Shown here: positions 3,187-34,013 of the stretch, in pieces
Layout of the letters: each line of letters starts with the position of its first letter
How positions within the stretch are numbered: the first letter of the stretch is position 1
Source: an uncultured Flavobacteriaceae bacterium
GTDB lineage: Bacteria; Bacteroidota; Bacteroidia; Flavobacteriales; Flavobacteriaceae
Direction of reading: 5' to 3'
Length of the DNA stretch: 45,034 nt
NCBI GenBank assembly: GCA_964474345.1
Contig: CAYYSK010000001.1
Coordinates: 6,955-51,988 of the forward strand
Notes under the pieces: generated by a model
What the model saw: the letters and a program-made list of their open reading frames with translations, nothing else
What the model was told of the DNA's origin: nothing
Databases searched by the model: none
Translations under genes and position numbers: made by a program

Positions 3187-3260
3187 GGCCTCGTAGTTCA
3201 ACTGGATAGAATATCAGATTTCGGCTCTGAGGGTTGGGGGTTCGAATCCCTTCGAGGTCA
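3187..3260 (+). tRNA. tRNA-Arg (anticodon TCG)
   Basis: Acceptor stem GGCCTCG/CGAGGTC, D-arm TAGTTCAACTGGATAGAAT, anticodon arm TCAGA-TT-TCG-GC-TCTGA, T-loop GGTTCGAATCC. 74 nt, CCA not encoded. Confidence 0.97.
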
Positions 3261-3265
3261 CAAAT

Positions 3266-3434
3266 AAACACAAAATGCGCACGTCAAATCAAGCTTGCTT
3301 GAATTTGTAAGTGCGCATTTTGTGTTTTCAAAGCTGAGCTTTAAAGGATCATCGAGAGTAGCGAGGTAACCTTAAAGGAATTTGGACCTTCTAAAATTGC
3401 TTGATTTGATGTGTGCATTTTATATTTTCAAAGC
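3266..3434. repeat. Structured repeat directly downstream of tRNA-Arg (inverted plus direct repeat)
   Basis: Perfect 17-bp inverted repeat AAACACAAAATGCGCAC (3266-3282) / GTGCGCATTTTGTGTTT (3311-3327). Segment 3295-3334 is repeated degenerately at 3397-3434. Confidence 0.75.
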
Positions 3435-3536
3435 GATACTTTGGAAGAATCATAATGAATACCACCTTTGAGGTCACTATAATGCTGTGAACCCTTTTTA
3501 GCATTAATGTTTAAAAAGATTTTGTGATGTAACAAG

Positions 3537-4260: not shown

Positions 4261-5103
4261 ATGAAAACTTTAAAACAGGTTTTAAACGAAAACCACAAGA
4301 ACAAAACAAAAAAAGAATTGGTAGACTTAATCACTGGGATTAAGGGAGTAGTAGGTCCAGATTATGACAAAATCACGGGCTTACAACCTAGTGAATTATC
4401 TAAAACCAGAAATGAAGATTTAGTTGCTATAATTGGCGATTTTTCTGAAAACTACAATTCTGAGTGGGAAGTAGCTTTTGCAAATGCGCCTACTAAAGTA
4501 ATTGGGATGATCTTAGAGCAAGAGCAAAGAGATCAGGAGTTTTTTGCTGCAAATACACCAGCAAATGCAAATTTTGCCTCAGAATTAGGTAATATCCCTT
4601 TCGAAAACATTATTGGGGGAGTTTTAGATGCTGCCGTTACTGCACAGACCAATGCGTCTATTGCTACAGTAGATTTTATTAAGGAGGTTGGATTCACAAC
4701 AACAGGTACTGGTGTTACTGCAGAAACTAAAGTAAGAACAGTTGATTTTTCTTATGTAGAAGAAGACCCCGCTGATCCTAATGGTACAGTTACAAGAACA
4801 GTTGAAGTTCCTTTTATCTCCTTATTAAATGTTCCTACATTACGTATTGAAACTGTAGATATTGATTTTAATGTACAATTAAATTCTGTATATACTAGAG
4901 ATGTAAGTTCTCAATTTGGTATTGATGCTTCTTTAGATGTGAAATTCCCTAGAGTGAAATTTAATGTTTCAGCTTCTTATAAAAGAAGTACCAGAACAGG
5001 AACTAAAGTAGAAAGAACTTATAATGTAGGTGTAAAAGTGAGAGCTACAAATGATGAGATTCCTGCGGGACTTGAAAAAGTATTAAACTTACTTTCTGCT
5101 TAA
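4261..5103 (+). CDS. DUF2589-family protein with ~100-aa N-terminal extension
   Basis: ELGNIPFENIIGGVLDAAVTAQTNASIATVDFIKEVGF, VEVPFISLLNVPTLRIETVDIDFNV and C-terminal PAGLEKVLNLL match my recollection of the DUF2589 pattern. No signal peptide. Confidence 0.8.
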   Translation: MKTLKQVLNENHKNKTKKELVDLITGIKGVVGPDYDKITGLQPSELSKTRNEDLVAIIGDFSENYNSEWEVAFANAPTKVIGMILEQEQRDQEFFAANTPANANFASELGNIPFENIIGGVLDAAVTAQTNASIATVDFIKEVGFTTTGTGVTAETKVRTVDFSYVEEDPADPNGTVTRTVEVPFISLLNVPTLRIETVDIDFNVQLNSVYTRDVSSQFGIDASLDVKFPRVKFNVSASYKRSTRTGTKVERTYNVGVKVRATNDEIPAGLEKVLNLLSA

Positions 5104-5108
5104 GCCTT

Positions 5109-5819
5109 ATGATTAATTTATCAGACTACCTTAACTACCTCAATGATGAGGTAGTTAAGGCTCGTAAAAAAGCTGATCTACAAGCGGTAGCTATGGCTAA
5201 AGAATATGCCAAAGATGAATATTTGCGTTTTTTTACAGTCCCAAGATTTGCCATGCCTAAGGTGAAATTAGACATCCCTATTAAAGTAAACTCACTGGAT
5301 AGTGATATTAAATACAATTTTAAACTCAATGAAGAGATGTTGGTCAATGATATAAATGATGGTATTACAAAGGTAAACCTAGAGAAATCATTGAATATTC
5401 CATTATTTAATATACAAAGCCTGCAAGGTTCTGTGTTTATAGAAGAGATAAAAGGCCTTGAGAATAATAACGGAATCTTTGTGAAGAGTATAGATGAATC
5501 CTTAGCAAGTCTTGATCTGGAGAATAAAACAGATATAATGTTGGAAATATCTGAGTTTTCTGTTGATATTCATGATACTACTGAAACTAATCTGGCGAAG
5601 CAAGAAACTATTAGAATTGTAAAAGAAGCAATAAAAAAGCAACATATTCCTGTTTCTACAAAAATCAATCAGATTTTTATTGATCCAAATACAACTAAAT
5701 CTGACGATAAGGATAAAATATTTATCAATATGAGTGTCGATTTGGAAGAGGAAGGCATTCGTATTAATAGTATGATTGATGAGAACGGGAATGCTATTGA
5801 AGAAATCAGTTTTGAGTAA
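5109..5819 (+). CDS. Hypothetical protein, probable DUF2589 partner or divergent paralog
   Basis: 236-aa ORF 5 bp after the previous stop. N-terminal helix followed by FTVPRFAMPKVKLDIPI resembles the VPTLRIETVDIDFNV segment of the upstream protein. Confidence 0.7.
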   Translation: MINLSDYLNYLNDEVVKARKKADLQAVAMAKEYAKDEYLRFFTVPRFAMPKVKLDIPIKVNSLDSDIKYNFKLNEEMLVNDINDGITKVNLEKSLNIPLFNIQSLQGSVFIEEIKGLENNNGIFVKSIDESLASLDLENKTDIMLEISEFSVDIHDTTETNLAKQETIRIVKEAIKKQHIPVSTKINQIFIDPNTTKSDDKDKIFINMSVDLEEEGIRINSMIDENGNAIEEISFE

Positions 5820-6400
5820 TGAAAGTACTAGTTCATTATAAAATACAGCAGTATAAAGATTTTACTACAAAAATCGTTGCCTTAAACGAAAGGTATATTA
5901 CTAATGATTTTAATCTTCAAAAGGATGTAGAAACGACCCTTAATGAGCTTCAAGAATTTCTAAAGGAAATAGGAGAAAGCACTCATGAATCAACGGTGAG
6001 CCAGTTACGTATGTATTTAAAGACAGCTGTTTCTGGGATCAATCCTATGAGTTTAGAAAAAGTGAAAATAGGTAGACGAAATTTGATTACCTCTGCTATC
6101 TATCATTGTCTATCACAAGTATTGGAATTATTAGATCATACTATTACTACTACACAACATACGATAGATGGTGTTACTGAAACCTTAAAACAAGTGATTT
6201 TATCGGTATTGCAATCTAATGCGATCACACTTGAAGAGTTGAAAAGTACAGATACGATTGAAAAAATAGAACAATTATGGGGACAATTAATTTTAAATGA
6301 GCAGATCAACCTGATTCATCAAAAAGTAAGCTTGGAAGTAGTCAAGCAAGACATTTATATCATTTTAGATAAACAAATACACAAATTACAAAGTAATTAA
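5819..6400 (+). CDS. Hypothetical alpha-helical protein
   Basis: 193-aa ORF with TAATG stop/start overlap. Amphipathic helical pattern; no recognised motif. Confidence 0.75.
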   Translation: MKVLVHYKIQQYKDFTTKIVALNERYITNDFNLQKDVETTLNELQEFLKEIGESTHESTVSQLRMYLKTAVSGINPMSLEKVKIGRRNLITSAIYHCLSQVLELLDHTITTTQHTIDGVTETLKQVILSVLQSNAITLEELKSTDTIEKIEQLWGQLILNEQINLIHQKVSLEVVKQDIYIILDKQIHKLQSN

Positions 6401-6412
6401 TTCAATGACACT

Positions 6413-7672
6413 ATGAACGAACAAAAAAAATATATTATTCTGTTGGATGAGAATAACACCTCGGCAGTAAAAAAAGCAGAAAAAGATTTAGGCATCACCC
6501 TTACTTCTTCCGCTGAGTTAAGCTCTACAGTAAGAGCGCAACAAGTTTTTGATAGCGGAAATAGTCTGTATTTAAAAAATTTAGGGATTGCTGTACTTGA
6601 CAAAGTTGAGGCAGAAAAAATTGCTAAGACCGTTAATAAGTCTTCCAGTTCTGTTATTTATTGGGAAGAAGAACAAGAATTTACTACACAACTAGAAACC
6701 GATCTCATTGGAGATATGCGTAACCATATTACTCAACTTTCTGAAAGACTGGACAATTTGGAAGGTTTTTTAAAAGAAAAAGAAAAGGAGAAACCACTTG
6801 TTGAGAATATGACTTGGGGACTTACCGCTATTGGTCAGGAAATGAGCAAGTTTACTGGAAAAGGGATTGATATTGCCATTTTGGATACCGGTTTTTATTT
6901 ACAACATCCGGATTTTGTTGGGAGAAAAATTACCGGAAAATCATTTATCAATGATCAGGCCTGGGATTTTGATGGAAATGGACATGGAACGCATTGCGCA
7001 GGTATTGCAGCAGGTTATAAGTCCCTTGTAGATGGATTACGCTACGGAATTGCACACAATGCCAATTTAGACATTAGCAAAGTATTAGGTGATAAAGGAA
7101 ATGGATCGACCAGTAGTATTTTGGATGCGATAGATCGTTGTATTGAGAAGAAACATAAAGTAATTTCTCTATCCCTTGGAACACCAGTACGTATTGGCCA
7201 GAATCCTTCCAAAATTTTTGAACACATTGGAAATAAAGCTTTAAAAAACAACTGTTTAATCATTGCAGCGGCAGGAAATAATAGTAACCGGCCTAATATT
7301 CCGCGTCCAGTAAGTAGTCCAGGGAATGCAGAATCTTTTATGGCAGTAGCTGCTTTAACAGATAAGCGAGAAGTTGCTAAATTTTCTAATGCCGGCATCA
7401 ATGTGAGTAATGGAGGGAGAATAGATGTTGCGGCACCAGGGGTTTCTATTTTTAGTTCGTTTTCTAAAAATGCACCAGGGAAGTTATTGTATAAAAAAAT
7501 GAATGGAACAAGTATGGCCGTACCACATGTAACTGGAGTTGCAGCACTCTATTTTGAAGCTTTTCCAAATGCATCTGCCTCAGAAATTTGGTTAAAATTG
7601 GAAAAAAGATCGAAACAACTTTCAAATCAATTAGTGAGAAATGTAGGGCAAGGATTAATTCAATCGATATAA
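6413..7672 (+). CDS. Subtilisin-like S8 serine protease, no signal peptide (probably cytoplasmic)
   Basis: Triad motifs IAILDTG, HGTHCAG and NGTSMAVPHV; oxyanion motif AAAGN; N-terminal propeptide-like region (KKYIILLDE...LGIAVL). Confidence 0.95.
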   Translation: MNEQKKYIILLDENNTSAVKKAEKDLGITLTSSAELSSTVRAQQVFDSGNSLYLKNLGIAVLDKVEAEKIAKTVNKSSSSVIYWEEEQEFTTQLETDLIGDMRNHITQLSERLDNLEGFLKEKEKEKPLVENMTWGLTAIGQEMSKFTGKGIDIAILDTGFYLQHPDFVGRKITGKSFINDQAWDFDGNGHGTHCAGIAAGYKSLVDGLRYGIAHNANLDISKVLGDKGNGSTSSILDAIDRCIEKKHKVISLSLGTPVRIGQNPSKIFEHIGNKALKNNCLIIAAAGNNSNRPNIPRPVSSPGNAESFMAVAALTDKREVAKFSNAGINVSNGGRIDVAAPGVSIFSSFSKNAPGKLLYKKMNGTSMAVPHVTGVAALYFEAFPNASASEIWLKLEKRSKQLSNQLVRNVGQGLIQSI

Positions 7673-7679
7673 AAATAAT

Positions 7680-7904
7680 ATGTATACATATTTAGCTATT
7701 TTAAAGGAAAACGTAAATAAAGAGGATAACTCTATTGTAGACTTTTGTTCTACACATAATATCAAGATTATTCAATTCTATAAAATATTAGGAATTCTAA
7801 AAATTTCTTCTGAGCATAAATTAAAAATTGATATAGAAAATGATTTCTTTGATGCTCTAGAATTAGAAAGAAATGATTTTAGTATTTCTAATGAAGAAGA
7901 ATGA
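7680..7904 (+). CDS. Small protein resembling a free-standing I9 propeptide or protease inhibitor
   Basis: 74 aa, 7 bp after the protease. YLAILKE...IIQFYKILGILKI...DALELE resembles the I9 beta-alpha-beta-beta-alpha-beta pattern and the protease's own N-terminus. Confidence 0.6.
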   Translation: MYTYLAILKENVNKEDNSIVDFCSTHNIKIIQFYKILGILKISSEHKLKIDIENDFFDALELERNDFSISNEEE

Positions 7905-8092: not shown

Positions 8093-11000
8093 ATGACAAA
8101 AAACACTTCATACCCAATGATAAAGGGAGTACTCCCTTTAGAAAAGATTTCTTCCAATGTAGAAGAAATCAAAAAGGTATTGGAGAAAGCATTACATGAA
8201 ATACAGGGAGAAGATTTTATGGATAATTATGGTGCACCTGAATTATATACGTTACATCTTTTGACGACAAATCGATTAGAAGTCCATTTTCTATTTACAA
8301 ATCGATTACATATACATACAGGTTTTAAAATCCCATATCCTACTGAAGGATTGCTACAAGTATCAAACAATGTTGAAGTTGCCTTTTTCTTTGATAACGC
8401 TTCTGTCTGGTATTTAACTATAAGAAAGCAAAACCGCCCTAATGGAGGAAGAATCTTTAATCTTTTAACTGCACAATCTTATATAGAAGTATCAGCAAAA
8501 AACAAAACTCTTGATGCACATGGTGAATTTAATTTTAATAAGAAATTTGGTGCCGCTCATGTAAAAGCCCGACTCTATACTAAAATAGGAGGAGCAGTAA
8601 GTGTTGATCGTTCTCAAATAGGCGGATATCTTGAAGTTGGTGGGTTTTTAGATATTAATTTATGGGGGATTTCAGCAAGGAAGGGCTACCGAGGTATTCT
8701 TGGAGTAGAAGCCCCTAGCCCTTCTCTGACAAAAGGTAAAGTATGCCTTGCTGCCCGTTTAAAAATAAGAAATAGCTATGTAGCACATCAAATAGTTATT
8801 CCCATTCAATGGAAACAGGATACTACGATAGATAGAAGCCCTATAATACCCTTTCCGAAAAAGAATTCAAAGAAGGCAGTCAAACAAATACAAGGGGTTC
8901 ACATGCTTACTGGAGAAACGTTTGATTTAATAGACTTGACAGAACAATATGATACCAGAGGAGACGATGCCGTATTTAATAATGCTATAATTCCTTTAGA
9001 TACGTATATAGATATTAAATTTTTAAAAGGTCTTTCTGTTGCTCGTTCTAATGATCCAAATAATCAGCTTCACACGCATCTAAATACTTGGGGAATTACG
9101 CAGGAAGTACAGGAACTTATAGGAGGCATAAGCAATCCTCCTGAAGAGAATCAGCAATTAATGCCTCCTCAAAAAACAGTAAAAGGAGGGCATACACTCC
9201 GTCAGGTACAACATAAGTATCATATTAACGGAATGAATATAGAAGCCTGGAATGGTACTCATTGGATATCTTATAATCCGTACAAAGCCGTTACTGCTAA
9301 AAATAGCTTGATTCCTGTGCAAGATGTCAGTGACTTTACGTTAGGACATTGGCAAAAAACGAGCAAAGCTTACGATCAAATCCGATTGTTGAGTAGTAAT
9401 CCGTTCACGTACATGGAACAAAGAAAAGAAGACTGGTACGCACCGGAAGAATTAGGAATTACGACTTCTACCCTTTTCTGTGAAAGTCAACCCAAACCCT
9501 TAGTATCTGTTAATTGGAAAAACAGACCTCGAGGAGAACGTTATTATATGCCATCTAGCAACCCAAATCATTTTTTTAATATAGGTCCTTTATTTTTTCA
9601 GGTGACAAGTAATAAAACCATGCAAGCTGCGTATGGAAAAGTAGCTACTCAATACAGTAATTTTGATTTTCCGCAATCGCTTAAAATTCATAACAGAAAC
9701 ATAATTACTTTAAAATTTCCAAATGCTGTACAAGAAGTACGATTAAAACTCTCCAGTACTGCGAGAGGAGTACACATTAGATGTTACAAAACGATTATTG
9801 ATGAGGAAGGGAATAGTAATTACACTTTGATTCCTGGAGGAGACATTTATAAATTTTCATCAAAACTCTACAGAGAATTTGTATTTAGTAATACTGAGCA
9901 GGGTATTGATCGTGTGGAGATAGATCCAGAAACAGAAAATGTAGAAAAAATTAGTATTATACTAGAAGAAATTGCACAATTATTAGAAGATACTTCTACC
10001 ATTTTTTCAGAAAACCCCAGAGCGTTTTTACGTCCGAAAGATCAAGAACGTTATGATTTACTTCTTTCTGAGTTAGAAGAAGTGAAAAGTATAGGTTGTG
10101 ATATAGATATCCGACCACCAAAAGGAATTGGTGCGATGCAAATAGGAACAAATGCAGACGATGCTACCTTTATTGTAGAAATAGATGCTTTTGGAAATGA
10201 AGGTATTGATGAACCTTTACCTAGTACAAACAATAGACTAAAATGCTATACACTGTTACATGAAGTACAATGGTTGTCACTCACCGATTGGGAATATAAT
10301 CAAGAAATCCCTACACAAGAAGCCATACGTAATGATGTGATCGCTACTATAAATGCTGCCACACAGGTAGCACAGCCTATCTGGCGACCTGATACTAGTT
10401 ATCGAGTGACCTTTACCGTATCAGATTTGGTGGATAAACAACAATTACATTCTTTCCCGTATCGTTTTGGATTTAAAACTGCAGGTCCTTTAGGGCATTT
10501 TCATAATGCACCTTATGTCACTTATGGTAATGAGCGTGATAGTGACGGTTTATTACTCTATCCAGATACGTATCCGTTAACAAATCTTGCTAGTTATATT
10601 GATTATGAACGTTCGTATCCGAATGCCAATAGCAATTTATATAATGCAAAACCTATGTTTTATGGCACCGAAGGAGGAACGAATGAAATCAAATTGTTTT
10701 TTACAAAACCCTATCTAAATCATATGATGGGAAATTGGGAAGCTTTTGATAGTTTTAATTCACTTTTTGGAGAAATGAAAATAGTTATTAAAAGTGCTAT
10801 CAAAGACATTACACTTGACATGCCTATTGTACCTGGAGAAGATACTTCTGAAATGGCTTTAGGAATCGAATCATGGAATCTAGATGATCATCCAAGACTG
10901 CCACTTCATATACAAACCTTCCAGAACTTGTTGGATAGAACCAATAGCGATATGAATTCAGGAAGTTGTCCTATTGGAATAGAAGATAAGATGATTCCTA

Positions 11001-11728
11001 AAAGTTACTACCTAACAGTCACCATTAATCATTTAAAACCTGAAAAAATATATACCGCTATTGTTAATAGTCATTATAAAGACAAAGTCGTACCGGTTCA
11101 TGTGTTTGATTTTCAAACCTCTCGTTATAAGAGTTTTAAAGAGCAGGTGGAGAGTTGTCTCTTCAAAGATGAATTTAATACAATTATTAGCCATGCCATT
11201 TATGACATTCCTGTTTCAGTAACCTCCACTCAAATACAACAAGTCTATACGTTAATTGCAGAAGGGTTTAATAACAATGCTTTCGCGAAAGCAATAGACC
11301 CTTTTGATAGCGCAGTGGAAGAATTATTGAAGATTAAACCATTAGACCCTGCCGTTACCACGGAATTTAACTTGATAAAAAATACAGAGAATATAGTGGT
11401 AGGACTCCTGATTAGAAATCCAGAACCTTTTAACAATCCTGATATTTCTAGAATAATTACTACGGGAAATACAAATGCTCATTTAAAAACTATTACCATC
11501 ATAGATGCAGACGGTATTGAAGATACTAGTTTTAAAATGATACATGCTAAAGATTATACGCAGTGCTTAATTATGAAACAAGAAACTATTGGAGAGAATT
11601 CGATGTATCAAATTTCTGATACTAGCTTGAACTTTCAATTTAGATATTTAAAATGGGATGGGAATGTATACGCTAATAGACCAGAAAATCAAATTGTAAT
11701 AACTAATCTGCAAATTAATAAGGAGTAA
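8093..11728 (+). CDS. Large hypothetical protein (1211 aa) with Gly/aromatic beta-rich N-terminal region, possibly DUF6603-like
   Basis: Long uninterrupted ORF. Beta-strand runs AQSYIEVSA...IGGYLEVGGFLDINLWGI. No signal peptide or T9SS C-terminal domain seen. Confidence 0.8.
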   Translation: MTKNTSYPMIKGVLPLEKISSNVEEIKKVLEKALHEIQGEDFMDNYGAPELYTLHLLTTNRLEVHFLFTNRLHIHTGFKIPYPTEGLLQVSNNVEVAFFFDNASVWYLTIRKQNRPNGGRIFNLLTAQSYIEVSAKNKTLDAHGEFNFNKKFGAAHVKARLYTKIGGAVSVDRSQIGGYLEVGGFLDINLWGISARKGYRGILGVEAPSPSLTKGKVCLAARLKIRNSYVAHQIVIPIQWKQDTTIDRSPIIPFPKKNSKKAVKQIQGVHMLTGETFDLIDLTEQYDTRGDDAVFNNAIIPLDTYIDIKFLKGLSVARSNDPNNQLHTHLNTWGITQEVQELIGGISNPPEENQQLMPPQKTVKGGHTLRQVQHKYHINGMNIEAWNGTHWISYNPYKAVTAKNSLIPVQDVSDFTLGHWQKTSKAYDQIRLLSSNPFTYMEQRKEDWYAPEELGITTSTLFCESQPKPLVSVNWKNRPRGERYYMPSSNPNHFFNIGPLFFQVTSNKTMQAAYGKVATQYSNFDFPQSLKIHNRNIITLKFPNAVQEVRLKLSSTARGVHIRCYKTIIDEEGNSNYTLIPGGDIYKFSSKLYREFVFSNTEQGIDRVEIDPETENVEKISIILEEIAQLLEDTSTIFSENPRAFLRPKDQERYDLLLSELEEVKSIGCDIDIRPPKGIGAMQIGTNADDATFIVEIDAFGNEGIDEPLPSTNNRLKCYTLLHEVQWLSLTDWEYNQEIPTQEAIRNDVIATINAATQVAQPIWRPDTSYRVTFTVSDLVDKQQLHSFPYRFGFKTAGPLGHFHNAPYVTYGNERDSDGLLLYPDTYPLTNLASYIDYERSYPNANSNLYNAKPMFYGTEGGTNEIKLFFTKPYLNHMMGNWEAFDSFNSLFGEMKIVIKSAIKDITLDMPIVPGEDTSEMALGIESWNLDDHPRLPLHIQTFQNLLDRTNSDMNSGSCPIGIEDKMIPKSYYLTVTINHLKPEKIYTAIVNSHYKDKVVPVHVFDFQTSRYKSFKEQVESCLFKDEFNTIISHAIYDIPVSVTSTQIQQVYTLIAEGFNNNAFAKAIDPFDSAVEELLKIKPLDPAVTTEFNLIKNTENIVVGLLIRNPEPFNNPDISRIITTGNTNAHLKTITIIDADGIEDTSFKMIHAKDYTQCLIMKQETIGENSMYQISDTSLNFQFRYLKWDGNVYANRPENQIVITNLQINKE
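11279..11292. repeat. GCTTTCGCGAAAGC palindrome, copy 2 (in CDS, encodes AFAKA)
   Basis: Exact match; extends to 16 bp (TGC...GCA). Confidence 0.9.
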
Positions 11729-11734
11729 AGAGTT

Positions 11735-14700
11735 ATGGAGAATCGGTTTTTTGAAAAGAACATTCATATAGAAAATTCTAATACTCGTTTTGTAAACAAA
11801 ATGGAGCAAAACTTGTATTGGGTATCTACTATTAAATATTTAATCGATCCATATACAAGGTTTACTCTTCTAGTCTCTGATGAAAACCTTAAAGTTCATA
11901 CTACTTATTCATTTAAATTACCTAATGCAAATAAAGAAATTTTAAGTGTCCGGTATATTTTAGAATGTTCTAATGGGGGTATAGTAATTATAGGAACTGT
12001 GGGAGTATATCCTCATCAGAAAAATTCTTTATTTATGTTGAGACTCAATAGTAATGGGGACAAAATTTGGTCAAAAGAAGTTGATGTCGTTATTGCTAAT
12101 TTTAAAATTGATTCGCAAACAATTTCTGCAATTGAATTTTCTCCTTCATTACTATTAATAAGTACTGGTAGATTATTATTCACCATTAATAATAAAGGAG
12201 AATTAATCAATAAAGTGTCAATTGCTTCGCATTCTAAAACACATCTCAAAGTAGAAATTGTAAAGATCGCTAGCACTAAAGTTTTTATTTCAATTAGTCT
12301 ATTTACACAGCCAAATATTTTTTTAATTCTAAGTGATCAATTAAAAATACTTCAATATATAAGTTATAAAGGGGATGATTTTTTTAAAGAAGTTAAATTC
12401 ACGAAAGTTGATGATGAGCTCTATTTTCTTTCTAAGAGTAATAAGCACGACTCAAAAAAACACCTTTTTTCTTTTAATCCGTCTTTAGGAATTCCGAAAA
12501 CCATTCAAACAAAAGTATTTGTTGAATATCAGGATATTAGTAATTATGAAGCTATCTATACCGTAGGAAATCATATTACTAGGATCTCCCGTATTACATC
12601 AGGAAAAACAGTTATTAGGAATTTTACAAAATCGTTAGAATCTATTGATTCAAAAGCAACAACAGAAAAGATATATTTTGCAACCACTACTTCTGACAAC
12701 GCAGCAATCTATACAAGAGGGGAGTTTTTAGGAATCAAAATTCCGGAATCATTGACGAATACCTCTTATATGAGTTTTGATACGATTCCTAATGTACCAT
12801 TAGGAACGGAAACTTTTACAGATGGTTTTTTTAATATCCCTTTTCAACCCACACCTGAAGTTCAAATAAGAGTTTTTGATATAGAGCCTACAACGCCTTA
12901 TCATTTTGAAGTCATCAAGATATGTCCTGTGACATTAAGCTCAGCAAATTCTACAATCACAGCAACACCCATTAAAACAGATGTTAACGGAAAACACCAA
13001 TCCAAAGTTACTGTAAAATTAATGGATGAAGATGGTGACCCTATTCAACTAGAAAATTATAGAATTACTATGCGTAGTACCTCTGGAGAAATCACTTTCC
13101 CTACCCAACTTAGTAAAAGTGTATTCGAGTCTACCATTATTTTAGATAAAAAAAGAATTTCACCCATAGTTTCATTTACGGTAAATGGGAAAATATTTCC
13201 AAATACAGTTTTTATTGATTTTCCGTTTGAGATTCCTATGACTCCTGTAGTTCATATCCAATCTCCTCATCTCTATCTACAAGCAGCTGGGTCTGCCGAA
13301 GGAGATGGAGATCAAAGTACTCCGGGTATTCACTTGCGTTGGTCATTTAAAAATAAATTAGGTAATGAACATGTACCTAAAGGAAATTTAGCCATAGGAA
13401 CCGCCAATTACAACAAACCAGACGATTATGTACGTGTGTATCGAGCCCCTTATCGTAACATATCAGTAACCATTTCTTTAGAAGATGCTCCGCAGTACAT
13501 GAATCATGAGCATGCACATTGGGTATACACCATAGATAACTCAAATTATTATGTCATTTTTAGAGATAGACAAAAATACAATAGTGCGTTACAGGTTATA
13601 AATCTTGAGGAAGGAAACCGTTTAGCGTTTTTAGAATTATATGACGATGGTATTTTTGAAGTAGAGACCCGAAGTCTAGCTTTTGGTGTCAAATGGATCA
13701 CCAATCATCAACTTACAAACAGTTCATTGCAAACCGAACTACGATCAGTAGAAACGAATGCATTGAGTGCTGATAAAAATGTAATTGCCAGAAAAACCTT
13801 TACTGGGAATGCCTTGAATGATACACAGCAATTTGGAGATACGATCCGATCGGTACGATTTAGAGCAATTAATTGTTATGTTACAACGATTCATTTAGAA
13901 TTGTACCAAACCTTCTTACAAACCACTAATACATCGAAAGATTGGTCGTTATTAGGGGATTTTGCGTTGACTACTTCTGATGAAGAAGCCTTACAGCGTT
14001 TAGAAAATATTCCTGGTAGCGTACATGAAAAATGGCCTAGATACACAAATAATAACTTGGTTAATAGTTATAATTATTGGGATAAGTGGAATGGCAAAAG
14101 GAAAAAAGGTGATCGAAATTTAAAACAAGTTGTTGAAAAATATATCGAGCTCAGTAATCAGGAAGGAAATCCATTGGCAGAAGAAATTATTGACTTTTCA
14201 AATGCATTAACCTCTAATGGTGTATCCGATTTACAAGAAGTTTCTAACTTGAATATCCTGCAATTGGCAGCGACAGACTATCATATAGCACGCATGATGG
14301 GATTAGGGCATATCGATACAGCTATCGATAGTGGTGTTCAAAAGTATGTATATATGATGGAGTACCATACGCAAGCATATTTAGAAAATTCACCTACTAT
14401 AGAGAGGAATGATCTATTAAATACTCAGGAAGTACAACATTTTTATATGACCATTCCGACGAGTAAACAAGATACACGTTTACCGTATCCCGTAGATTTA
14501 TTAAGTGTAGAACCTGGAGTTAAAAGCATTGGTTTAGATCAAAACAGTGCTCTCACGGATCTTGGTGGATATACAGCGATCGGAAGACAACAATATCTAA
14601 GTATTTATGCTAAAGAATTAATAGCATATGAAAATGAAAGTTTTTATGAAACTTCCACTCAATTTAATTATTCTGAAGCTACGTATCCTGTATATGCAGG

Positions 14701-17602
14701 AATTTCGTATCGTGAGAAAACGAATGAAAATAACTGGGTAGATTCTGAAATTTCTAGCAATGCTCATTATTTTTCAGCAGGATCGAAGACTACCAGTGAG
14801 GTAATACCTTTGCCTATTCCATTATCAAGAGAGCCTTTATTTATCCATAGAATTCTAAGAGGAGGTATACATGCGTATTTGGGATATGGAATTAATTGGT
14901 TTGGACGTTCCAACATCAGTAAAAATGAACCCTTGGAAATCATAACGGAGTTTCCAGTACAACAATCATTAAAGCCACCTGTTATTATTAGTGCTTTACA
15001 TATCATAGAGGAAGATCAAACCATACTAACATCAGTTAATGAACAAGAGCGCTTCAAAACAAATACCTTTAATGATCCTACTATTGTAAGGCTCCTGTTT
15101 AATTATAATCAAGATCAAGAATTGATTAGCTATCCCGTACATAGTGATGATAGAAGACAATTTACAGAACTACAGTTATTACATCCTACTATCTATAAAC
15201 CTAATCAAAATGAAGTTTTTGCTAATGAAATAGAAGTGTTTTTCAGAAATCGACTCCCACAAAGTATTCGAGGACGCATAAGCACGATTACGAATGATAT
15301 TACAGATTCATCACTTTTCATACTAACTACAGATCAACATATACTTTACAGTAAAAAAAATAAAAACGAGGTAACTGGCGAGTATGAATATGCTGCGATC
15401 ACTCCTGAAATACCAGAAGGTATATCAGTAATCCATTTTACCGGAGGTGTTTTAATGATAGGGATGCAAAAATTTATCATTCATAGTATGAGTGTTGATA
15501 CGAATGGATTTCCTGTTATTAAAATTTATAAGAATTCTATTCAAGAAGTACAACCTATGACTATGACAGGAACTCCTGATATTTCCCGAAATGAGCAGTT
15601 TATAGCCATAGAAAATATGACCGCTATTGAAAGTTGGGGAAGTGAAAATCCTAGCACTTTTAAGATACAAATTCCTAAAGAAATCTGTAAAATACACAGA
15701 GCTCTTATAGAAACGAGTGTAGGTTCAGATACTAACGAATTGGTTTTAGAAAAATTCAGAGGACTTTATGATACCAATGTGACGATCACTCCTGTATTGG
15801 AGACCAATGAAATTAACGATAGTCATAAAGAGATCGCCTCAATGCATAAAGGACTTTATAAAATTCATATGAGTAAAACTTTATCACAACATCCTCAGTT
15901 TAATGAAAAAGGGAATTCTGTAGAATGGCAAGGCGGTACTGTACGAATTCCATCTGAAGCAAACCCTAGAGGATTTAAACGTGTTCTAAGGGTGCTAAAG
16001 ATTGAAAATATAGGAAGTGCTGACGGATTGATTCTTTATGCTTTTGATGCTAGTTTTACAAAGGAAATTTTAGATTCAGATACAGGCAACATTATAGGAT
16101 ATCGATCTGAAAACCCTATACAAAAAGAAGGGCCAATCGCCATTAATTTCTATCCAGGGTATAACGTATATCTATATGCAGACGAACCTTTTGGGTTAAC
16201 TGTTGATACTTTAGCAACTATAAGATCAGAAAACCTACCATATGCTATTTTTGGAGGTCGTTCCAAAGTAGATCAGTATCGATATACCCGAGGAATCCCT
16301 CCTAAATATGTAACAACCCATTATTCAACTATAGGAACTCCGATTTCGATGTTGAGTCGTAGTGTGATCCCTGCATTACGTCCCCAGTTACCTGTAGGAC
16401 CTAGTTATACTACAAGACCTGACTCATATGGAAAGGCAACATATACGTTTACTACTAATTTTAATCATAAACCCTTTGCTGTACAATATAGTAGAGCACA
16501 TGAGCAAGATATATTAAACGCTTTATATACGCCTTCAACCATTGATGAGATAAAAACACAATTAGCTTCTTTTTCAAAAGACGAATATGCAAATTCCAGA
16601 TGGAAAAATGTATTGAGTTTCGATTATAATAATCGTGAAGGCGTCTTTGAGAGATTTCCAGATACGGAAGATGGTTATAGATTCCCGAATCCAGATAACA
16701 TACTTTTATTTGAACGAATTAATAATGCTATTGCAAAATACAATCAAGAAGAAAATCTTACGACTCCTGTTACTACAATAAATGCAGGAAGTCTAATTCC
16801 TGGAGCTGTGGTGATTCCAGGAACAAATGGCAGTGAAGATGTGACTTTAGCAGATTATATAAAAAAAGCAGTATTGGATGTTTTTGTTCCGTTAACAGAA
16901 GTCCCGCTCGTCTTTGATCAGATTGAGAATCGTAACTCATACCAACCTGTTAATAAGAAACAGGTAATTCGAGATAGAAATGGAAATTTATTAAGGCCTA
17001 CTGATGTAGCATATGCTATTGCTCCGATGGCAAAACGAATAGGAAATAATAATGAATTACAATTTACTGATTTTACTTTAGATGGAACGACTAGTCACCT
17101 ATACTTCTATAAGGTACAGGAATGTTCTAATACTATGAAAATAGGGGAAGCGAGTCCTATCTTAGGCCCCGTGTATGTCATGAACACAAATCCATTAGAA
17201 GCTCCTCAATTACGACAGGTATTATCTCTTAGTGAACCTAAACTATCAGTGACATTTGAGTTTGCTCCATATCCTATAGAACAACAAATAGTAAGTATAC
17301 ATCTTTATCGAACATCAGATCGTATAAAAGCAACTTCTATACGAAGTATGGATTTAGTAAAAACAATCGATCTCAGACTGACAGAACCACTGGAAAACTC
17401 AGTGCTGAAAATCACTGATACATCTGAAGATTTACAGCAAATACTATATAAAATTCCCGTTTATTATAGAGTTACGATACGTAACGAGGTTTCATATACT
17501 ATAATAGAAGAAGGTATTGATACACTGATAACAAAGCCGGTGCCTTCTAAAGCTTCGGATTTAATAACAATAGAAATATCAAGTACAGAAAGTAATTCAT
17601 AA
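11735..17602 (+). CDS. Giant hypothetical protein (1955 aa): propeller-like N-terminus, Big_1/invasin-like Ig domain, GIHLRW core, FnIII-like C-terminal domains
   Basis: LFMLRLNSNGDKIWSK (propeller blade-like); SANSTITATP...SKVTVKLMDEDGDPI (Big_1-like, ~aa 399-496); QAAGS...GIHLRW (aa 531-536); FTDFTL...YFYKVQE and IHLYRT...YYRVTI (FnIII-like). Confidence 0.8.
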   Translation: MENRFFEKNIHIENSNTRFVNKMEQNLYWVSTIKYLIDPYTRFTLLVSDENLKVHTTYSFKLPNANKEILSVRYILECSNGGIVIIGTVGVYPHQKNSLFMLRLNSNGDKIWSKEVDVVIANFKIDSQTISAIEFSPSLLLISTGRLLFTINNKGELINKVSIASHSKTHLKVEIVKIASTKVFISISLFTQPNIFLILSDQLKILQYISYKGDDFFKEVKFTKVDDELYFLSKSNKHDSKKHLFSFNPSLGIPKTIQTKVFVEYQDISNYEAIYTVGNHITRISRITSGKTVIRNFTKSLESIDSKATTEKIYFATTTSDNAAIYTRGEFLGIKIPESLTNTSYMSFDTIPNVPLGTETFTDGFFNIPFQPTPEVQIRVFDIEPTTPYHFEVIKICPVTLSSANSTITATPIKTDVNGKHQSKVTVKLMDEDGDPIQLENYRITMRSTSGEITFPTQLSKSVFESTIILDKKRISPIVSFTVNGKIFPNTVFIDFPFEIPMTPVVHIQSPHLYLQAAGSAEGDGDQSTPGIHLRWSFKNKLGNEHVPKGNLAIGTANYNKPDDYVRVYRAPYRNISVTISLEDAPQYMNHEHAHWVYTIDNSNYYVIFRDRQKYNSALQVINLEEGNRLAFLELYDDGIFEVETRSLAFGVKWITNHQLTNSSLQTELRSVETNALSADKNVIARKTFTGNALNDTQQFGDTIRSVRFRAINCYVTTIHLELYQTFLQTTNTSKDWSLLGDFALTTSDEEALQRLENIPGSVHEKWPRYTNNNLVNSYNYWDKWNGKRKKGDRNLKQVVEKYIELSNQEGNPLAEEIIDFSNALTSNGVSDLQEVSNLNILQLAATDYHIARMMGLGHIDTAIDSGVQKYVYMMEYHTQAYLENSPTIERNDLLNTQEVQHFYMTIPTSKQDTRLPYPVDLLSVEPGVKSIGLDQNSALTDLGGYTAIGRQQYLSIYAKELIAYENESFYETSTQFNYSEATYPVYAGISYREKTNENNWVDSEISSNAHYFSAGSKTTSEVIPLPIPLSREPLFIHRILRGGIHAYLGYGINWFGRSNISKNEPLEIITEFPVQQSLKPPVIISALHIIEEDQTILTSVNEQERFKTNTFNDPTIVRLLFNYNQDQELISYPVHSDDRRQFTELQLLHPTIYKPNQNEVFANEIEVFFRNRLPQSIRGRISTITNDITDSSLFILTTDQHILYSKKNKNEVTGEYEYAAITPEIPEGISVIHFTGGVLMIGMQKFIIHSMSVDTNGFPVIKIYKNSIQEVQPMTMTGTPDISRNEQFIAIENMTAIESWGSENPSTFKIQIPKEICKIHRALIETSVGSDTNELVLEKFRGLYDTNVTITPVLETNEINDSHKEIASMHKGLYKIHMSKTLSQHPQFNEKGNSVEWQGGTVRIPSEANPRGFKRVLRVLKIENIGSADGLILYAFDASFTKEILDSDTGNIIGYRSENPIQKEGPIAINFYPGYNVYLYADEPFGLTVDTLATIRSENLPYAIFGGRSKVDQYRYTRGIPPKYVTTHYSTIGTPISMLSRSVIPALRPQLPVGPSYTTRPDSYGKATYTFTTNFNHKPFAVQYSRAHEQDILNALYTPSTIDEIKTQLASFSKDEYANSRWKNVLSFDYNNREGVFERFPDTEDGYRFPNPDNILLFERINNAIAKYNQEENLTTPVTTINAGSLIPGAVVIPGTNGSEDVTLADYIKKAVLDVFVPLTEVPLVFDQIENRNSYQPVNKKQVIRDRNGNLLRPTDVAYAIAPMAKRIGNNNELQFTDFTLDGTTSHLYFYKVQECSNTMKIGEASPILGPVYVMNTNPLEAPQLRQVLSLSEPKLSVTFEFAPYPIEQQIVSIHLYRTSDRIKATSIRSMDLVKTIDLRLTEPLENSVLKITDTSEDLQQILYKIPVYYRVTIRNEVSYTIIEEGIDTLITKPVPSKASDLITIEISSTESNS

Positions 17603-17615
17603 AAAAATAAAAAGC

Positions 17616-20402
17616 ATGGAAGAATCAGAACAAGAATTAACAGGACCAGGAGGAGAAGGATCAGTAGAGTCAACTCCTGAAGATCTACATGATCCAATAG
17701 ACGTAGGACCTGGTTTTCCTCAAGATGAAGATTTGATTGACAATACAATTTTGGCACCAGAAGAAGTATCGTTAAAATCAAAAGATACATTAAAAAGTTA
17801 TTTTGAACGAGGCGATATCCCTACAGAACTGCAATTTTCAGATTTAATTAATGCTTTTAGGCATATCAGTGATGGTCATACGATTGCAGATGTTACTACA
17901 GAAATCAATGGAAGTATACATATTACCTTATCTGACGGTACAACAATTACTATTTCACCTCCGATATCAGATGATTTTGTGCCTAAAACAGGAGGGGATT
18001 TTGAAGGAAAAGTAACTGCTCCTCAAATGGATATTACAGATACTTTGGAAGTAAAAGGAGATATCATTGGTCGAAATATTGATGGCGGACCCCCTTCTAA
18101 GCTTCTTAAATTTGAAGGTCTATACTTAGGTCATATATCTACACCTTCTAGTTTTGGGACAGATATAAATCACTCTATCAGATCAAGATATGGAAATGAG
18201 TGGAAGAATAAAGACAGTATCACTATAAACTCAGCAAATCATATACGACTTAATATAGACTCTAACAATAATCAACAATCCAGGTTTGAAATTGGCGGAG
18301 GCACTTCAGGAATAGATAATGTTATTTTTTCGGTAGATGAGTTTGGGAATACCAATTCAAAAGGATATATAAGTATAGGAGAGAGACGAGTTGCTACAGA
18401 ACAATGGGTAAATACTCAAGGATTCTTTAAAGGCGCTCCTGATAATTTTATATCTAAAAATGGGGGAGTGTTTTCAGGCTCTGTTGGAATTGGAGGCCCT
18501 GCAACAGATAAAGCACTCCATACTTATGGAAGTCAGATACGTATAGAAACGCCTCATGGATATGGAAGCCTTGGCGCTGAGACTCCTGATGCTTTCCATT
18601 TTGAAACAAATTTACCTCTAATATGGCTAGGGAGTAATGTGCGATCTTATGGTAATATTGGAGTTTTAGGGAAAAATACGTTCATGCGTTTTAGTGATGG
18701 CGCTATTTTAGAGAATAACCAACGCGTTGCCACACAAAATTGGATAAATGAGCAAGATTTTATAAAAGATGACGTTGTTACTCCTTTTGTTAGAAAAGGA
18801 GTAAATGAAAACAATGCTTTTAACGGTGATTATTTAATTTTTAATTATAATACAGTCTCCGATGTAGATGCCATCAGTTTTAACCCCAATACTAATGGAT
18901 TTTATTTTAACGCAGCCAGAGGTAAGAATAAAACACATGCAAATGCAAGTATTTATGTTAATAAAGTAATTGCTTTTAACGACCTTTCTACTGCAAAAAG
19001 CGTTCATGCTGCAGGTAACATGTATGCAGGAGCTGGTAGTGGTAAAGGCTCATATTATGGAGGAGATAAAGAGATTATTAAGTTTAGTGATGGATGGTTA
19101 CGGTTAAATCCTTCTACAACTTCGGCTTCTAGATTTAATAGTGGTATCTACTGTAGTACAAGTAAATTAAGAACCGATGGTCAATTTGAAATAGGTTCTG
19201 AAGGGAGTAAGTTTAAAGTAACTTCGGGTGGTACTGTAACCGCTTCTGGAAACTTTAGTACTTCTGGTAATGATAAAGGATATCGTTTTTATAATTCTGA
19301 TAAATTTAAGATCTATATGACAACTACCGCAAATGGAGGTAGAGTTAATGGAGAAACTACTTCTGATTTTAATATGTATTTTAAAATATTAAATAATGGA
19401 GGAGTTAATAGGGGATTTATTTTTAAAACAGAGTCAGGTAATGTAGCGGGAATAGATGGCGCAGGAAATGGTAGATTTAAAGGAAGAATCATTGCTTTTG
19501 ATAATATTTCTACAGCAACTAATTTAAATGCCGGAGGAGATATCAACGCAAATCAAAATATCAGAGGAAGAATCGCTTCTGGTGTTGCTTCTAAATTAGT
19601 AAAATTTGAAGGCTTGTATTTTGGGTGGGTTCCTGGAACTACTGATTTTGGGTCTAAAAAAGAACATTGTATACGATCATCTTATGGAGATGAAACAACT
19701 GATAGAGATAGTATTACTATAAACTCTTACAACCATATACGACTCAATATAGATTCTAATAATAATAATGTCAGTAAATTTGAAATAGGTGGAGGGACTA
19801 CTGGAATTGGAAATGTTCTTTTTTCGGTAAATGAAAATGGAGAGACACGCTCAAGTGGAAATATCTATGCTAATGGATCTGCATATTTTGGAGATGGGAA
19901 GGAAATTATTAGATTTACTGATAGTTGGTTACGGTTAAATCCAAGGACCGATTTACTCGGTTTTACTAGTGGTATTTATTGCGGGCATAGTATATTAAGA
20001 ACGGATGGTCAACTGGAAGTAGGAAGTGGAGGAAGTAAGTTTAAAGTAACTTCTAGTGGTACTGTAACTGCTGCAGGTAATATTACTGGAATGTCTGACA
20101 GAAAACTCAAAGAAGCCATACAGCCTGTAAAAGAGAGTGTTCTAGATAAAATAGACCAACTCAAACCCATTTATTATCATTGGAAAGACAAAGCCAAAGA
20201 TCAAGCCAGGCAATTAGGGTTTATTGCACAAGATGTAAAAGAAGTATTTCCGGAATGGGTGCATGAAAATGAGGAATATTACAGTATGTCTTATGACAAG
20301 ATGGGAGCTGTTTTAGCAGTAAAAGGGATACAAGAGCTTCATGAAGAGATTAAATCATTAAGAAAAGAATTAAAAATACTAAAAGATAGTATTATCAAGT
20401 AG
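17616..20402 (+). CDS. Tail-fibre protein with C-terminal peptidase S74 intramolecular chaperone
   Basis: C-terminal SDRKLKEAI...GFIAQDV...PEWV...SYDKM...KGIQEL plus coiled coil; Gly-rich beta-fibre repeats (FVPKTGGDFEG); N-terminal LKSYFERGDIPTELQFSDLI motif. Confidence 0.9.
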   Translation: MEESEQELTGPGGEGSVESTPEDLHDPIDVGPGFPQDEDLIDNTILAPEEVSLKSKDTLKSYFERGDIPTELQFSDLINAFRHISDGHTIADVTTEINGSIHITLSDGTTITISPPISDDFVPKTGGDFEGKVTAPQMDITDTLEVKGDIIGRNIDGGPPSKLLKFEGLYLGHISTPSSFGTDINHSIRSRYGNEWKNKDSITINSANHIRLNIDSNNNQQSRFEIGGGTSGIDNVIFSVDEFGNTNSKGYISIGERRVATEQWVNTQGFFKGAPDNFISKNGGVFSGSVGIGGPATDKALHTYGSQIRIETPHGYGSLGAETPDAFHFETNLPLIWLGSNVRSYGNIGVLGKNTFMRFSDGAILENNQRVATQNWINEQDFIKDDVVTPFVRKGVNENNAFNGDYLIFNYNTVSDVDAISFNPNTNGFYFNAARGKNKTHANASIYVNKVIAFNDLSTAKSVHAAGNMYAGAGSGKGSYYGGDKEIIKFSDGWLRLNPSTTSASRFNSGIYCSTSKLRTDGQFEIGSEGSKFKVTSGGTVTASGNFSTSGNDKGYRFYNSDKFKIYMTTTANGGRVNGETTSDFNMYFKILNNGGVNRGFIFKTESGNVAGIDGAGNGRFKGRIIAFDNISTATNLNAGGDINANQNIRGRIASGVASKLVKFEGLYFGWVPGTTDFGSKKEHCIRSSYGDETTDRDSITINSYNHIRLNIDSNNNNVSKFEIGGGTTGIGNVLFSVNENGETRSSGNIYANGSAYFGDGKEIIRFTDSWLRLNPRTDLLGFTSGIYCGHSILRTDGQLEVGSGGSKFKVTSSGTVTAAGNITGMSDRKLKEAIQPVKESVLDKIDQLKPIYYHWKDKAKDQARQLGFIAQDVKEVFPEWVHENEEYYSMSYDKMGAVLAVKGIQELHEEIKSLRKELKILKDSIIK
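18096..20081 (+). repeat. Internal module duplications in the tail fibre gene
   Basis: Module A at 18096-18347 and 19590-19841 (84 codons each; DSITINSxNHIRLNIDSNNN shared). Module B at 19068-19253 and 19899-20081 (KEIIxFxDxWLRLNP...GSKFKVTS). Confidence 0.9.
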
Positions 20403-33479: not shown

Positions 33480-34013
33480 ATGCAACTAGATCAACTTATA
33501 ACAAGATTTCAACAAAAGAACGAGAGTGCTTTTGCGGAACTCTATGAGTTATACAGAGAGAGTATTTTAGGAGTTATTTACAGTGTATTACATGATCGAG
33601 AACTCTCGGAAGAAGTATTGCAAGATGTATTTGTGAAGGCATGGAATAATGCGAGTTCTTATAACTCAAAAAAAGGACGTTTTTTTACATGGTTATTAAA
33701 TATAGCTCGTAATGCAGCTATAGATAAAACACGTTCTAAAGCATTTAAGAATAGTAAGCAAAACCAGAGTGCCGCATATTACGTAGATGTCCTCGAAGAA
33801 AAAAGTAGTTTTTCTTCAAAGGTAGATACAATAGGAATTAAAAAGTATATTGAGGTATTAGAACCTTTATGTAAAAAGGTAATACAACTACTTTTCTTTA
33901 AGGGATATACACAAAAAGAAACCGCTGAAGAGTTAGAAATTCCGTTAGGGACCGTAAAAACCCGTAATAGGATTTGTATTAAAAAATTAAGAGAAGTATT
34001 AGGAGAAGCGTGA
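33480..34013 (+). CDS. ECF RNA polymerase sigma-70 factor (SigK-like)
   Basis: EEVLQDVFVKAW, FFTWLLNIARNAAID, region 4 IPLGTVKTR. Confidence 0.95.
   Translation: MQLDQLITRFQQKNESAFAELYELYRESILGVIYSVLHDRELSEEVLQDVFVKAWNNASSYNSKKGRFFTWLLNIARNAAIDKTRSKAFKNSKQNQSAAYYVDVLEEKSSFSSKVDTIGIKKYIEVLEPLCKKVIQLLFFKGYTQKETAEELEIPLGTVKTRNRICIKKLREVLGEA

Follow-up and report, generated by a model that had tools for sequence, protein, structure and literature searches.

A conserved five-gene cassette of Bacteroidota that combines a DUF2589 protein with a subtilase and its likely inhibitor

We analysed a 45,034-nucleotide stretch of DNA from an uncultured Flavobacteriaceae bacterium (the window; contig CAYYSK010000001.1, positions 6,955 to 51,988), in which five co-oriented genes, here called A to E, encode a DUF2589 protein, two partner proteins, a subtilase and a small inhibitor-like protein (Table 1). 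A preliminary description of this DNA had proposed that they form a protease-gated pore. Recomputing the open reading frames (ORFs) returned the same five genes with the gaps it had given (5, −1, 12 and 7 bp for A–B, B–C, C–D and D–E). Its statement that none of the five carries a signal peptide agreed with the hydropathy of the N termini: within the first 32 residues, the maximum over 10 residues was at most 2.07 in all five families, compared with 2.67 and 2.87 in signal-peptide-like proteins of the window. A transmembrane helix was likewise not found in A to E of the window, where the highest 19-residue hydropathy was 0.67–1.12; these statements on signal peptides and transmembrane segments are hydropathy checks. 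The cassette is spanned by contigs of the probable source run, and a second strain (run X2, from another study) carried 15 coding differences, 13 of them silent. A promoter and terminator scan of the cassette gave matches at chance level.

Table 1. Positions of the cassette, its parts and the adjacent tRNA gene in the window.
Feature	Position	Strand	Description
Gene A	4261..5103	+	280 residues; N-terminal helical extension, then DUF2589 core; candidate latent barrel subunit
A residues 1–100	4261..4560	+	Small helical domain with two similar basic helix motifs and low-confidence linker 91–103; candidate removable piece
DUF2589 (PF11655) domain, A residues 113–278	4597..5094	+	Profile match
Amphipathic beta-hairpin F219–Y240 of A	4915..4980	+	Two 11-residue strands; candidate membrane-spanning barrel element
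Gene B	5109..5819	+	236 residues; begins with a long helix, followed by a long strand, a variable helical insert and strands at the C terminus
Gene C	5819..6400	+	193 residues; all helical by sequence pattern; constant third member of A-B-C cassettes
Gene D	6413..7672	+	419-residue subtilase (S8); prodomain-like region ~5–90, heptad-like linker, catalytic domain 149–400
Gene E	7680..7904	+	74 residues; likely stand-alone I9-type (subtilisin propeptide-like) inhibitor of D
tRNA-Arg(TCG)	3187..3261	+	Cassette is the first gene block after the tRNA

The cassette is a real, conserved and undescribed unit. A scan of GTDB genomes gave 145 loci, of which we took the best 80; four were cut by contig ends, leaving 76 with room for the downstream genes. 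Metagenome loci were fetched with B (the best 80 of 97), and 58 of these had a long A, 45 of them with room. In every genome locus with room (76 of 76) and every such metagenome locus (45 of 45), the S8 gene D followed A-B-C. A lack of co-occurrence of S8 with DUF2589 had been named beforehand as refuting evidence, and the two were found together at every checkable long-form locus. E was present in 75 of the 76 genome loci and in all 45 metagenome loci (120 of 121), the lone exception (L063) being frameshifted throughout, and all five genes kept their order in 75/76 and 45/45 loci, respectively. The 80 genome loci are not independent, because 52 of them are Chryseobacterium by title. Carriers included Flavobacteriaceae, Weeksellaceae, Dysgonomonadaceae, Paludibacteraceae, Saprospiraceae, Chitinophagaceae and Sphingobacteriaceae, with one protein match labelled Campylobacterales; the nearest named relatives are Flavobacteriaceae, and the identity of A between orders of Bacteroidota is about 50%. 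The flanking genes vary between lineages, and 50 loci have the same two flanking gene clusters, so that in Chryseobacterium the cassette site is old and stable. Chance hitch-hiking of D-E beside A-B-C was ruled out by these counts and by the tree of A cores described below. DUF2589 of any type was patchy, occurring in 19 of 401 genomes of the phylum; its range extends over several bacterial phyla, an archaeon and phage records. Paralogues usually lie in tandem, in clusters of two to four across phyla. Some of these clusters hold two or three DUF2589 paralogues plus a small zinc-ribbon gene (L122, L123, L127, L128 and L130); two of them (L122 and L123) have a long relative of B between two DUF2589 genes and lack C.

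Protein A matched the DUF2589 profile at 99.9 bits (cut-off 23; E 2.4e-28), ends two residues past the domain and contains no cysteine. Its structural model (predicted local distance difference test, pLDDT, 67; predicted template modelling score, pTM, 0.35) placed the small N-terminal domain before a 31-residue helix and two long strands (residues 194–213 and 246–264). The segment between these strands, unresolved in the model, contains the hairpin F219–Y240, whose pLDDT in the monomer was below 50. Hydrophobic and polar residues alternate there at 21 of 22 positions, and aromatic residues mark the tip as well as either end. A score of 21 was reached by seven of 688 of the bacterium's own ORFs of similar size and by two of 500 shuffled sequences, and scores were 19–21 in all 120 close relatives and 20–21 at the same place in distant DUF2589 proteins. 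Aromatic-ended alternating strands of such length are typical of the membrane-inserting hairpins of beta-pore proteins and toxins. The hairpin of A is thus a candidate membrane-inserting element, its pattern being consistent with insertion, although a pattern alone is no proof.

The low-confidence linker that precedes the DUF2589 core is flanked by the invariant residues F95 and F105. The N-terminal domain before it gave a weak match to the N-terminal helices of Rho (Z 4.4, root-mean-square deviation 2.0, 45 residues aligned), which serves as a lead only. Fold searches of the PDB with the models of A (pTM 0.35) and B returned nothing clear (best Z 4.7 and 5.9), and sequence searches of the PDB with profiles of A, C and E found nothing significant. 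One viral match, at E 2e-8, was to an unnamed 178-residue protein. A complex prediction with two A cores and two B chains, run without controls, scored 0.00 and is evidence in neither direction.

D is an intact protease. Its Peptidase_S8 domain matched at residues 149–400 (E 4.6e-48), and, as the preliminary description had stated, the catalytic triad is complete: D158, H191 and S367, together with the oxyanion residue N289, were present in 36 of 36 aligned D proteins. The protein consists of the prodomain-like region, the linker and the S8 domain, and no sensor domain is fused to it. Several lines of evidence strongly suggest that E inhibits D, the role first proposed for it. The best of these is that two loci (L121 and L149) carry, in place of D and E, another protease and an inhibitor of the class known to act on it: there, A-B-C is directly followed by a papain-family (C1) protease and a chagasin-type (I42) inhibitor. 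The nearest named atlas clusters of E were I9 (0.87) and subtilisin prodomains (0.86), both under 0.9 and therefore leads, and one relative is named 'Inhibitor I9 domain-containing' in UniRef. The family has a strand-helix pattern, a tail of 7–9 residues after an invariant late Glu in 34 of 42 members and a hydrophobic tail end in 36 of 42; the E of the window has five extra C-terminal residues. Pfam I9 matched none of the 42 members, and hhalign comparisons of E with the prodomain of D and with the small protein of locus L148 were not significant.

B, C and E had no Pfam or NCBIfam match over the cut-off. The model of B was confident (pLDDT 86) and showed a long helix, long strands and the variable helical insert. 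B is possibly a remote DUF2589 relative without the conserved amphipathic hairpin: an hhalign comparison with DUF2589 gave P 36% and E 4e-4 over the N-terminal 58 residues only, and hairpin scores in the family were scattered (16–21). The DUF2589 profile matched none of 47 B members, and hhalign of A against B with shallow profiles, or of B against hairpin-less paralogues, was not significant. Relatives of B in short-form cassettes (those in which A lacks the N-terminal extension) match PF27375, and no relative of B was found in viral contigs. C has 564 relatives at 50% clustering and belongs to no known family; it contains a weak HU/IHF-like stretch (E 0.025).

The protease beside A-B-C is exchanged between lineages. 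Besides the papain-family replacement, one locus (L148) has a more distant S8 gene followed by a different small gene of 68 residues. In another (L215:5252-12096), A-B-C precedes co-oriented genes for an M15 peptidase, a papain (C1), a subtilase (S8), a small membrane protein and a caspase, and a further locus (L252:5900-13681) matches this multi-protease cluster, again co-oriented, with a non-specific endonuclease in addition. Directly upstream of A in yet another lineage (L251:3751-5652) lies a leaderless 633-residue protein with a prodomain-like N terminus, an HExxH zinc-protease motif and ricin-type lectin repeats. The swapping of proteases beside A-B-C indicates selection for an adjacent protease, and the fact that unrelated proteases were swapped in suggests that the protease is likely to switch on the predicted pore.

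The N-terminal extension of A follows a related pattern. A tree was built from 48 A cores; trimming cut its row L019 too early, and three of its rows sit on long branches. One group comprised the long-form A proteins with S8 and E, and a separate supported clade (97/98) carried basic, low-complexity extensions of 45–87 residues. The loci with exchanged proteases described above fall within this clade, and four of its five lineages have an adjacent protease. In all 14 short-form A-B-C rows of the tree, A starts 12–16 residues before the core helix, at about residue 102 of the window protein. None of these 14 has an S8 gene beside C by profile, nor a C1 protease or caspase among the neighbours inspected or scanned; M15, CHAP or M14 peptidases or a patatin lie near some of them. 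Three short-form genomes held no D-like subtilase at E 1e-20, and a fourth, like the genome of locus L147, held distant ones only. Because the short forms start where the linker 91–103 ends, a cut there would yield a product like the natural short form. Long and short forms were not found together in any of the eight Weeksellaceae genomes checked. In Chryseobacterium-like loci (L125 and L218–L227), the short-form cassette follows a leaderless M15 peptidoglycan peptidase and a leaderless patatin phospholipase and seems to exclude the long form. Three other short-form A proteins (L132:7985-8884, L133:186-1103 and L253:8249-9163) have a Gly/Thr-rich beta insert of 90–110 residues between the first two strands.

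Because the genes form a fixed set, the protease is intact, A carries the hairpin pattern, protease classes are exchanged and the extension goes with a protease, we tentatively favour a protease-gated membrane barrel, in which D would remove the extension of A, A-B-C would breach a membrane and E would restrain D. D would mature and then be held by E, which would check stray D activity, until loss, titration or degradation of E frees it; with no sensor domain in D, the balance between D and E would act as the switch. Free D would cut A in or near the flexible linker 91–103, a step that we propose with moderate confidence. A, latent until cut, would then build a membrane-breaching beta-barrel with B and C by means of its amphipathic hairpin; we have moderate confidence that A oligomerises in this way, and there are weak grounds for regarding B and C as its assembly partners. 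The likeliest outcome would be that cells under stress, or a sub-population of them, undergo controlled permeabilisation or lyse themselves. If this reading is true, the cassette would be a structurally distinct, multi-subunit addition to protease-activated pore systems, in which inhibitor loss replaces a sensor; it might also account for lysis in Bacteroidota, or for their release of proteins without export signals. The cassette provides a first direct handle on DUF2589, as the natural short forms mark where a cut would fall, the natural swaps name the inhibitor and a single Ser-to-Ala exchange would inactivate the protease. A broader proposal, which we consider somewhat doubtful, is that DUF2589 proteins, widespread in bacteria, archaea and phages, build hetero-oligomeric beta-barrel pores whose fold resembles no solved structure, and that the cassette is their protease-gated form: a sensor-less death or lysis switch for which any broad-specificity protease suffices, triggered by loss of the small cognate inhibitor and serving as a programmed lysis and release pathway of Bacteroidota.

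Several observations weigh against a gated barrel. One locus (L147) has an extension and no adjacent protease, and the association of the two amounts to one or two independent contrasts, because each side comprises about two clades. Extensions of the low-complexity type are basic and rich in Ala, Ser, Thr and Pro, a composition that would fit nucleic-acid binding as well. Some A-B-C cassettes and other DUF2589 clusters occur without any protease, so that a pore there would need another control. The polar face of the hairpin also suits soluble amphipathic sheets, and the strands 194–213 and 246–264 alternate too. Finally, the lectin repeats of the L251 protease suggest an outside target and hence a cargo. 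The earlier proposal of a latent beta-pore effector is thus upheld in part, the hairpin pattern favouring a pore and the extension-protease pattern favouring latency; it had overlooked the A-B-C cassettes without a protease and the possibility that the protease is cargo.

The cargo option leads to the alternative that fares best, although it too is doubtful. Here, A-B-C would be an envelope-crossing release device, similar in function to a holin or to type 10 secretion, the leaderless protease would be its cargo, and E would protect the cytoplasm up to the moment of release; on this view a barrel may exist, but the protease would not gate it. The leaderless hydrolases that adjoin A-B-C (S8, C1, the ricin-lectin zinc protease, M15, patatin, CHAP and an endonuclease) would be a natural set of cargoes, and a cytoplasmic inhibitor next to a prodomain-bearing protease fits a safety catch. 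In addition, one short-form A-B-C lies directly upstream of a TcdB/SpvB-type toxin-complex gene (L133:186-6818), one short form is near an extracellular contractile injection system (eCIS) core gene, and a Vibrio DUF2589 pair (L120:7480-10981) sits beside a reb (R-body) gene cluster, near an eCIS-core gene. However, the 19-residue hydropathy maximum of 1.12 leaves no alpha-helical transmembrane segment for a holin in A to E, and a folded 40-kDa protease would demand a very wide barrel. This alternative also leaves the extension of A beside proteases unexplained, and at least four short-form lineages (L132, L253, L254 and L255) have no hydrolase among the neighbours inspected or scanned.

It is unlikely that A, B and C assemble into a soluble scaffold or polymer, in which the hairpin pairs with neighbouring subunits, the basic extension perhaps binds nucleic acid, and D and E control maturation or turnover with no membrane breach. 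The clusters of two to four DUF2589 paralogues across phyla, the conservation of A across Bacteroidota orders, the stable site in Chryseobacterium and the basic extensions would all suit such a structure, as would the response of Archaeoglobus DUF2589 homologues to carbon source, mentioned in passing in one report (PMC3949148). By contrast, the strand length, aromatic ends and aromatic tip of the hairpin match those of membrane-inserting hairpins, and the patchy spread of DUF2589 speaks against a housekeeping role. Least probable of all is that D is itself an effector that cuts host or phage proteins, with E as antitoxin and A-B-C as a platform for sensing or activation, which would remove E or the prodomain from it. 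As expected of an effector module, four classes of broad-specificity protease can replace one another, and effector-less caspases can defend, according to a recent preprint (10.1101/2025.11.14.688446), but A-B-C without an adjacent protease is common and would have no output, and the flanks show no defence context.

Anti-phage defence, one of the purposes suggested in the preliminary description, was not supported for the cassette. In the 2023 PADLOC library, A, B, C and E had no match and D matched generic subtilase models only. Among the 125 proteins that flank 22 of 25 chosen loci, we found no defence system; nine matched a defence model, in our reading ABC, Clp, sigma-54, TPR and GlgB look-alikes and one trypsin-TPR protein. 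The constant flanks of the 50 loci described above likewise count against a protease-gated barrel if its purpose is defence, and only two loci (L205 and L215), with several proteases around, are island-like. Given a D without a sensor, no PADLOC match and no defence system in the flanks, classical anti-phage defence is less likely than permeabilisation or lysis.

The tRNA-Arg(TCG) site looks like an insertion hot spot, as the region from it up to a pair of extracytoplasmic function (ECF) sigma genes at 33480 is far longer than in congeners. The four congeners inspected carry other genes there, so the content of the site is variable, and a DUF2589 match, a distant one, was found in one of 33 congeners. 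Degenerate direct repeats follow the tRNA (3187-3480), including a partial copy of its 3′ end near 3470. Downstream of the cassette, three co-oriented giant ORFs of 1211, 1955 and 928 residues (8093-20402) lack signal peptides; the third has a C-terminal S74 tail-fibre chaperone domain, and the second weakly matches invasin Ig. We considered and rejected these ORFs as part of the cassette: 8093-11728 and 11735-17602 were unmatched in all related loci, and 17616-20402 had one match, to S74 only. Large ORFs after some short-form cassettes (L218, L219 and L221) open with an N-terminal motif similar to that of the giant ORFs.

The full-text literature yielded no functional study of DUF2589 (PF11655), with subscription papers and supplementary tables outside the scope of the search, and PF27375 was not found in the literature searched. 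Two papers mention DUF2589 expression in passing (PMC3949148 and PMC11402942). Among titles and abstract openings on protease-activated pores since 2022, none names this arrangement; supplementary tables of defence candidates, which could list the cassette, lay outside that search.

The closest parallels are Pepco barrels and EACC1 pores, which are activated by adjacent proteases (Evans et al., bioRxiv 10.1101/2025.11.14.688446). They share with the cassette a gene for a helix-plus-beta-strand protein beside a protease, the exchange of serine for cysteine proteases, amphipathic strands that could build a barrel and activation through loss of a terminal piece, the last of which we infer for the cassette. 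The cassette differs in having three constant partner genes rather than one, in that the removable piece of A would be N-terminal and there is no C-terminal tail, and in that D lacks a fused sensor, is paired with a dedicated inhibitor gene and has no defence context. Bacterial gasdermins, 43 of 50 of which adjoin proteases (Johnson et al., bioRxiv 10.1101/2021.06.07.447441), are similar in that a pore protein, in the cassette a candidate beta-pore protein, is encoded beside one or more proteases, with subtilases among the protease domains described there. Unlike them, A has neither a lipid-anchor cysteine nor a C-terminal inhibitory peptide, and the cassette has a multi-gene core and an inhibitor gene. 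Family, profile and fold searches did not support homology to gasdermin, Pepco or Trypco: A had no Pfam match to the gasdermin family, fold searches with its pTM 0.35 model gave no clear match of any kind, and the Trypco2 comparison was not significant (one of 25 DUF2589 proteins touches it at E 0.2, and hhalign with a seven-row Trypco2 alignment gave P 13%). In two short loci (L232:1210-1785 and L233:1483-2103), the encoded proteins combine what looks like a signal peptide with two Trypco2 domains in tandem, and no protease gene was seen beside them there.

E resembles stand-alone I9 inhibitors (MEROPS I9, for example POIA1) in its size, strand-helix pattern, late Glu and hydrophobic-ended tail, but its family lacks a Pfam I9 match. 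Similar to type 10 secretion and phage-type lysis cassettes, several lineages have leaderless hydrolases and large leaderless proteins alongside A-B-C; those cassettes combine a holin with a peptidoglycan hydrolase, whereas here there is no holin-like transmembrane helix, and peptidoglycan hydrolase genes (M15 or CHAP) stand beside several related cassettes but not in that of the window. Among the DUF2589 paralogue clusters of Pfam, in which tandem paralogues are usual, A is a member, and the form with B, C, a protease and an inhibitor is a distinct sub-type.

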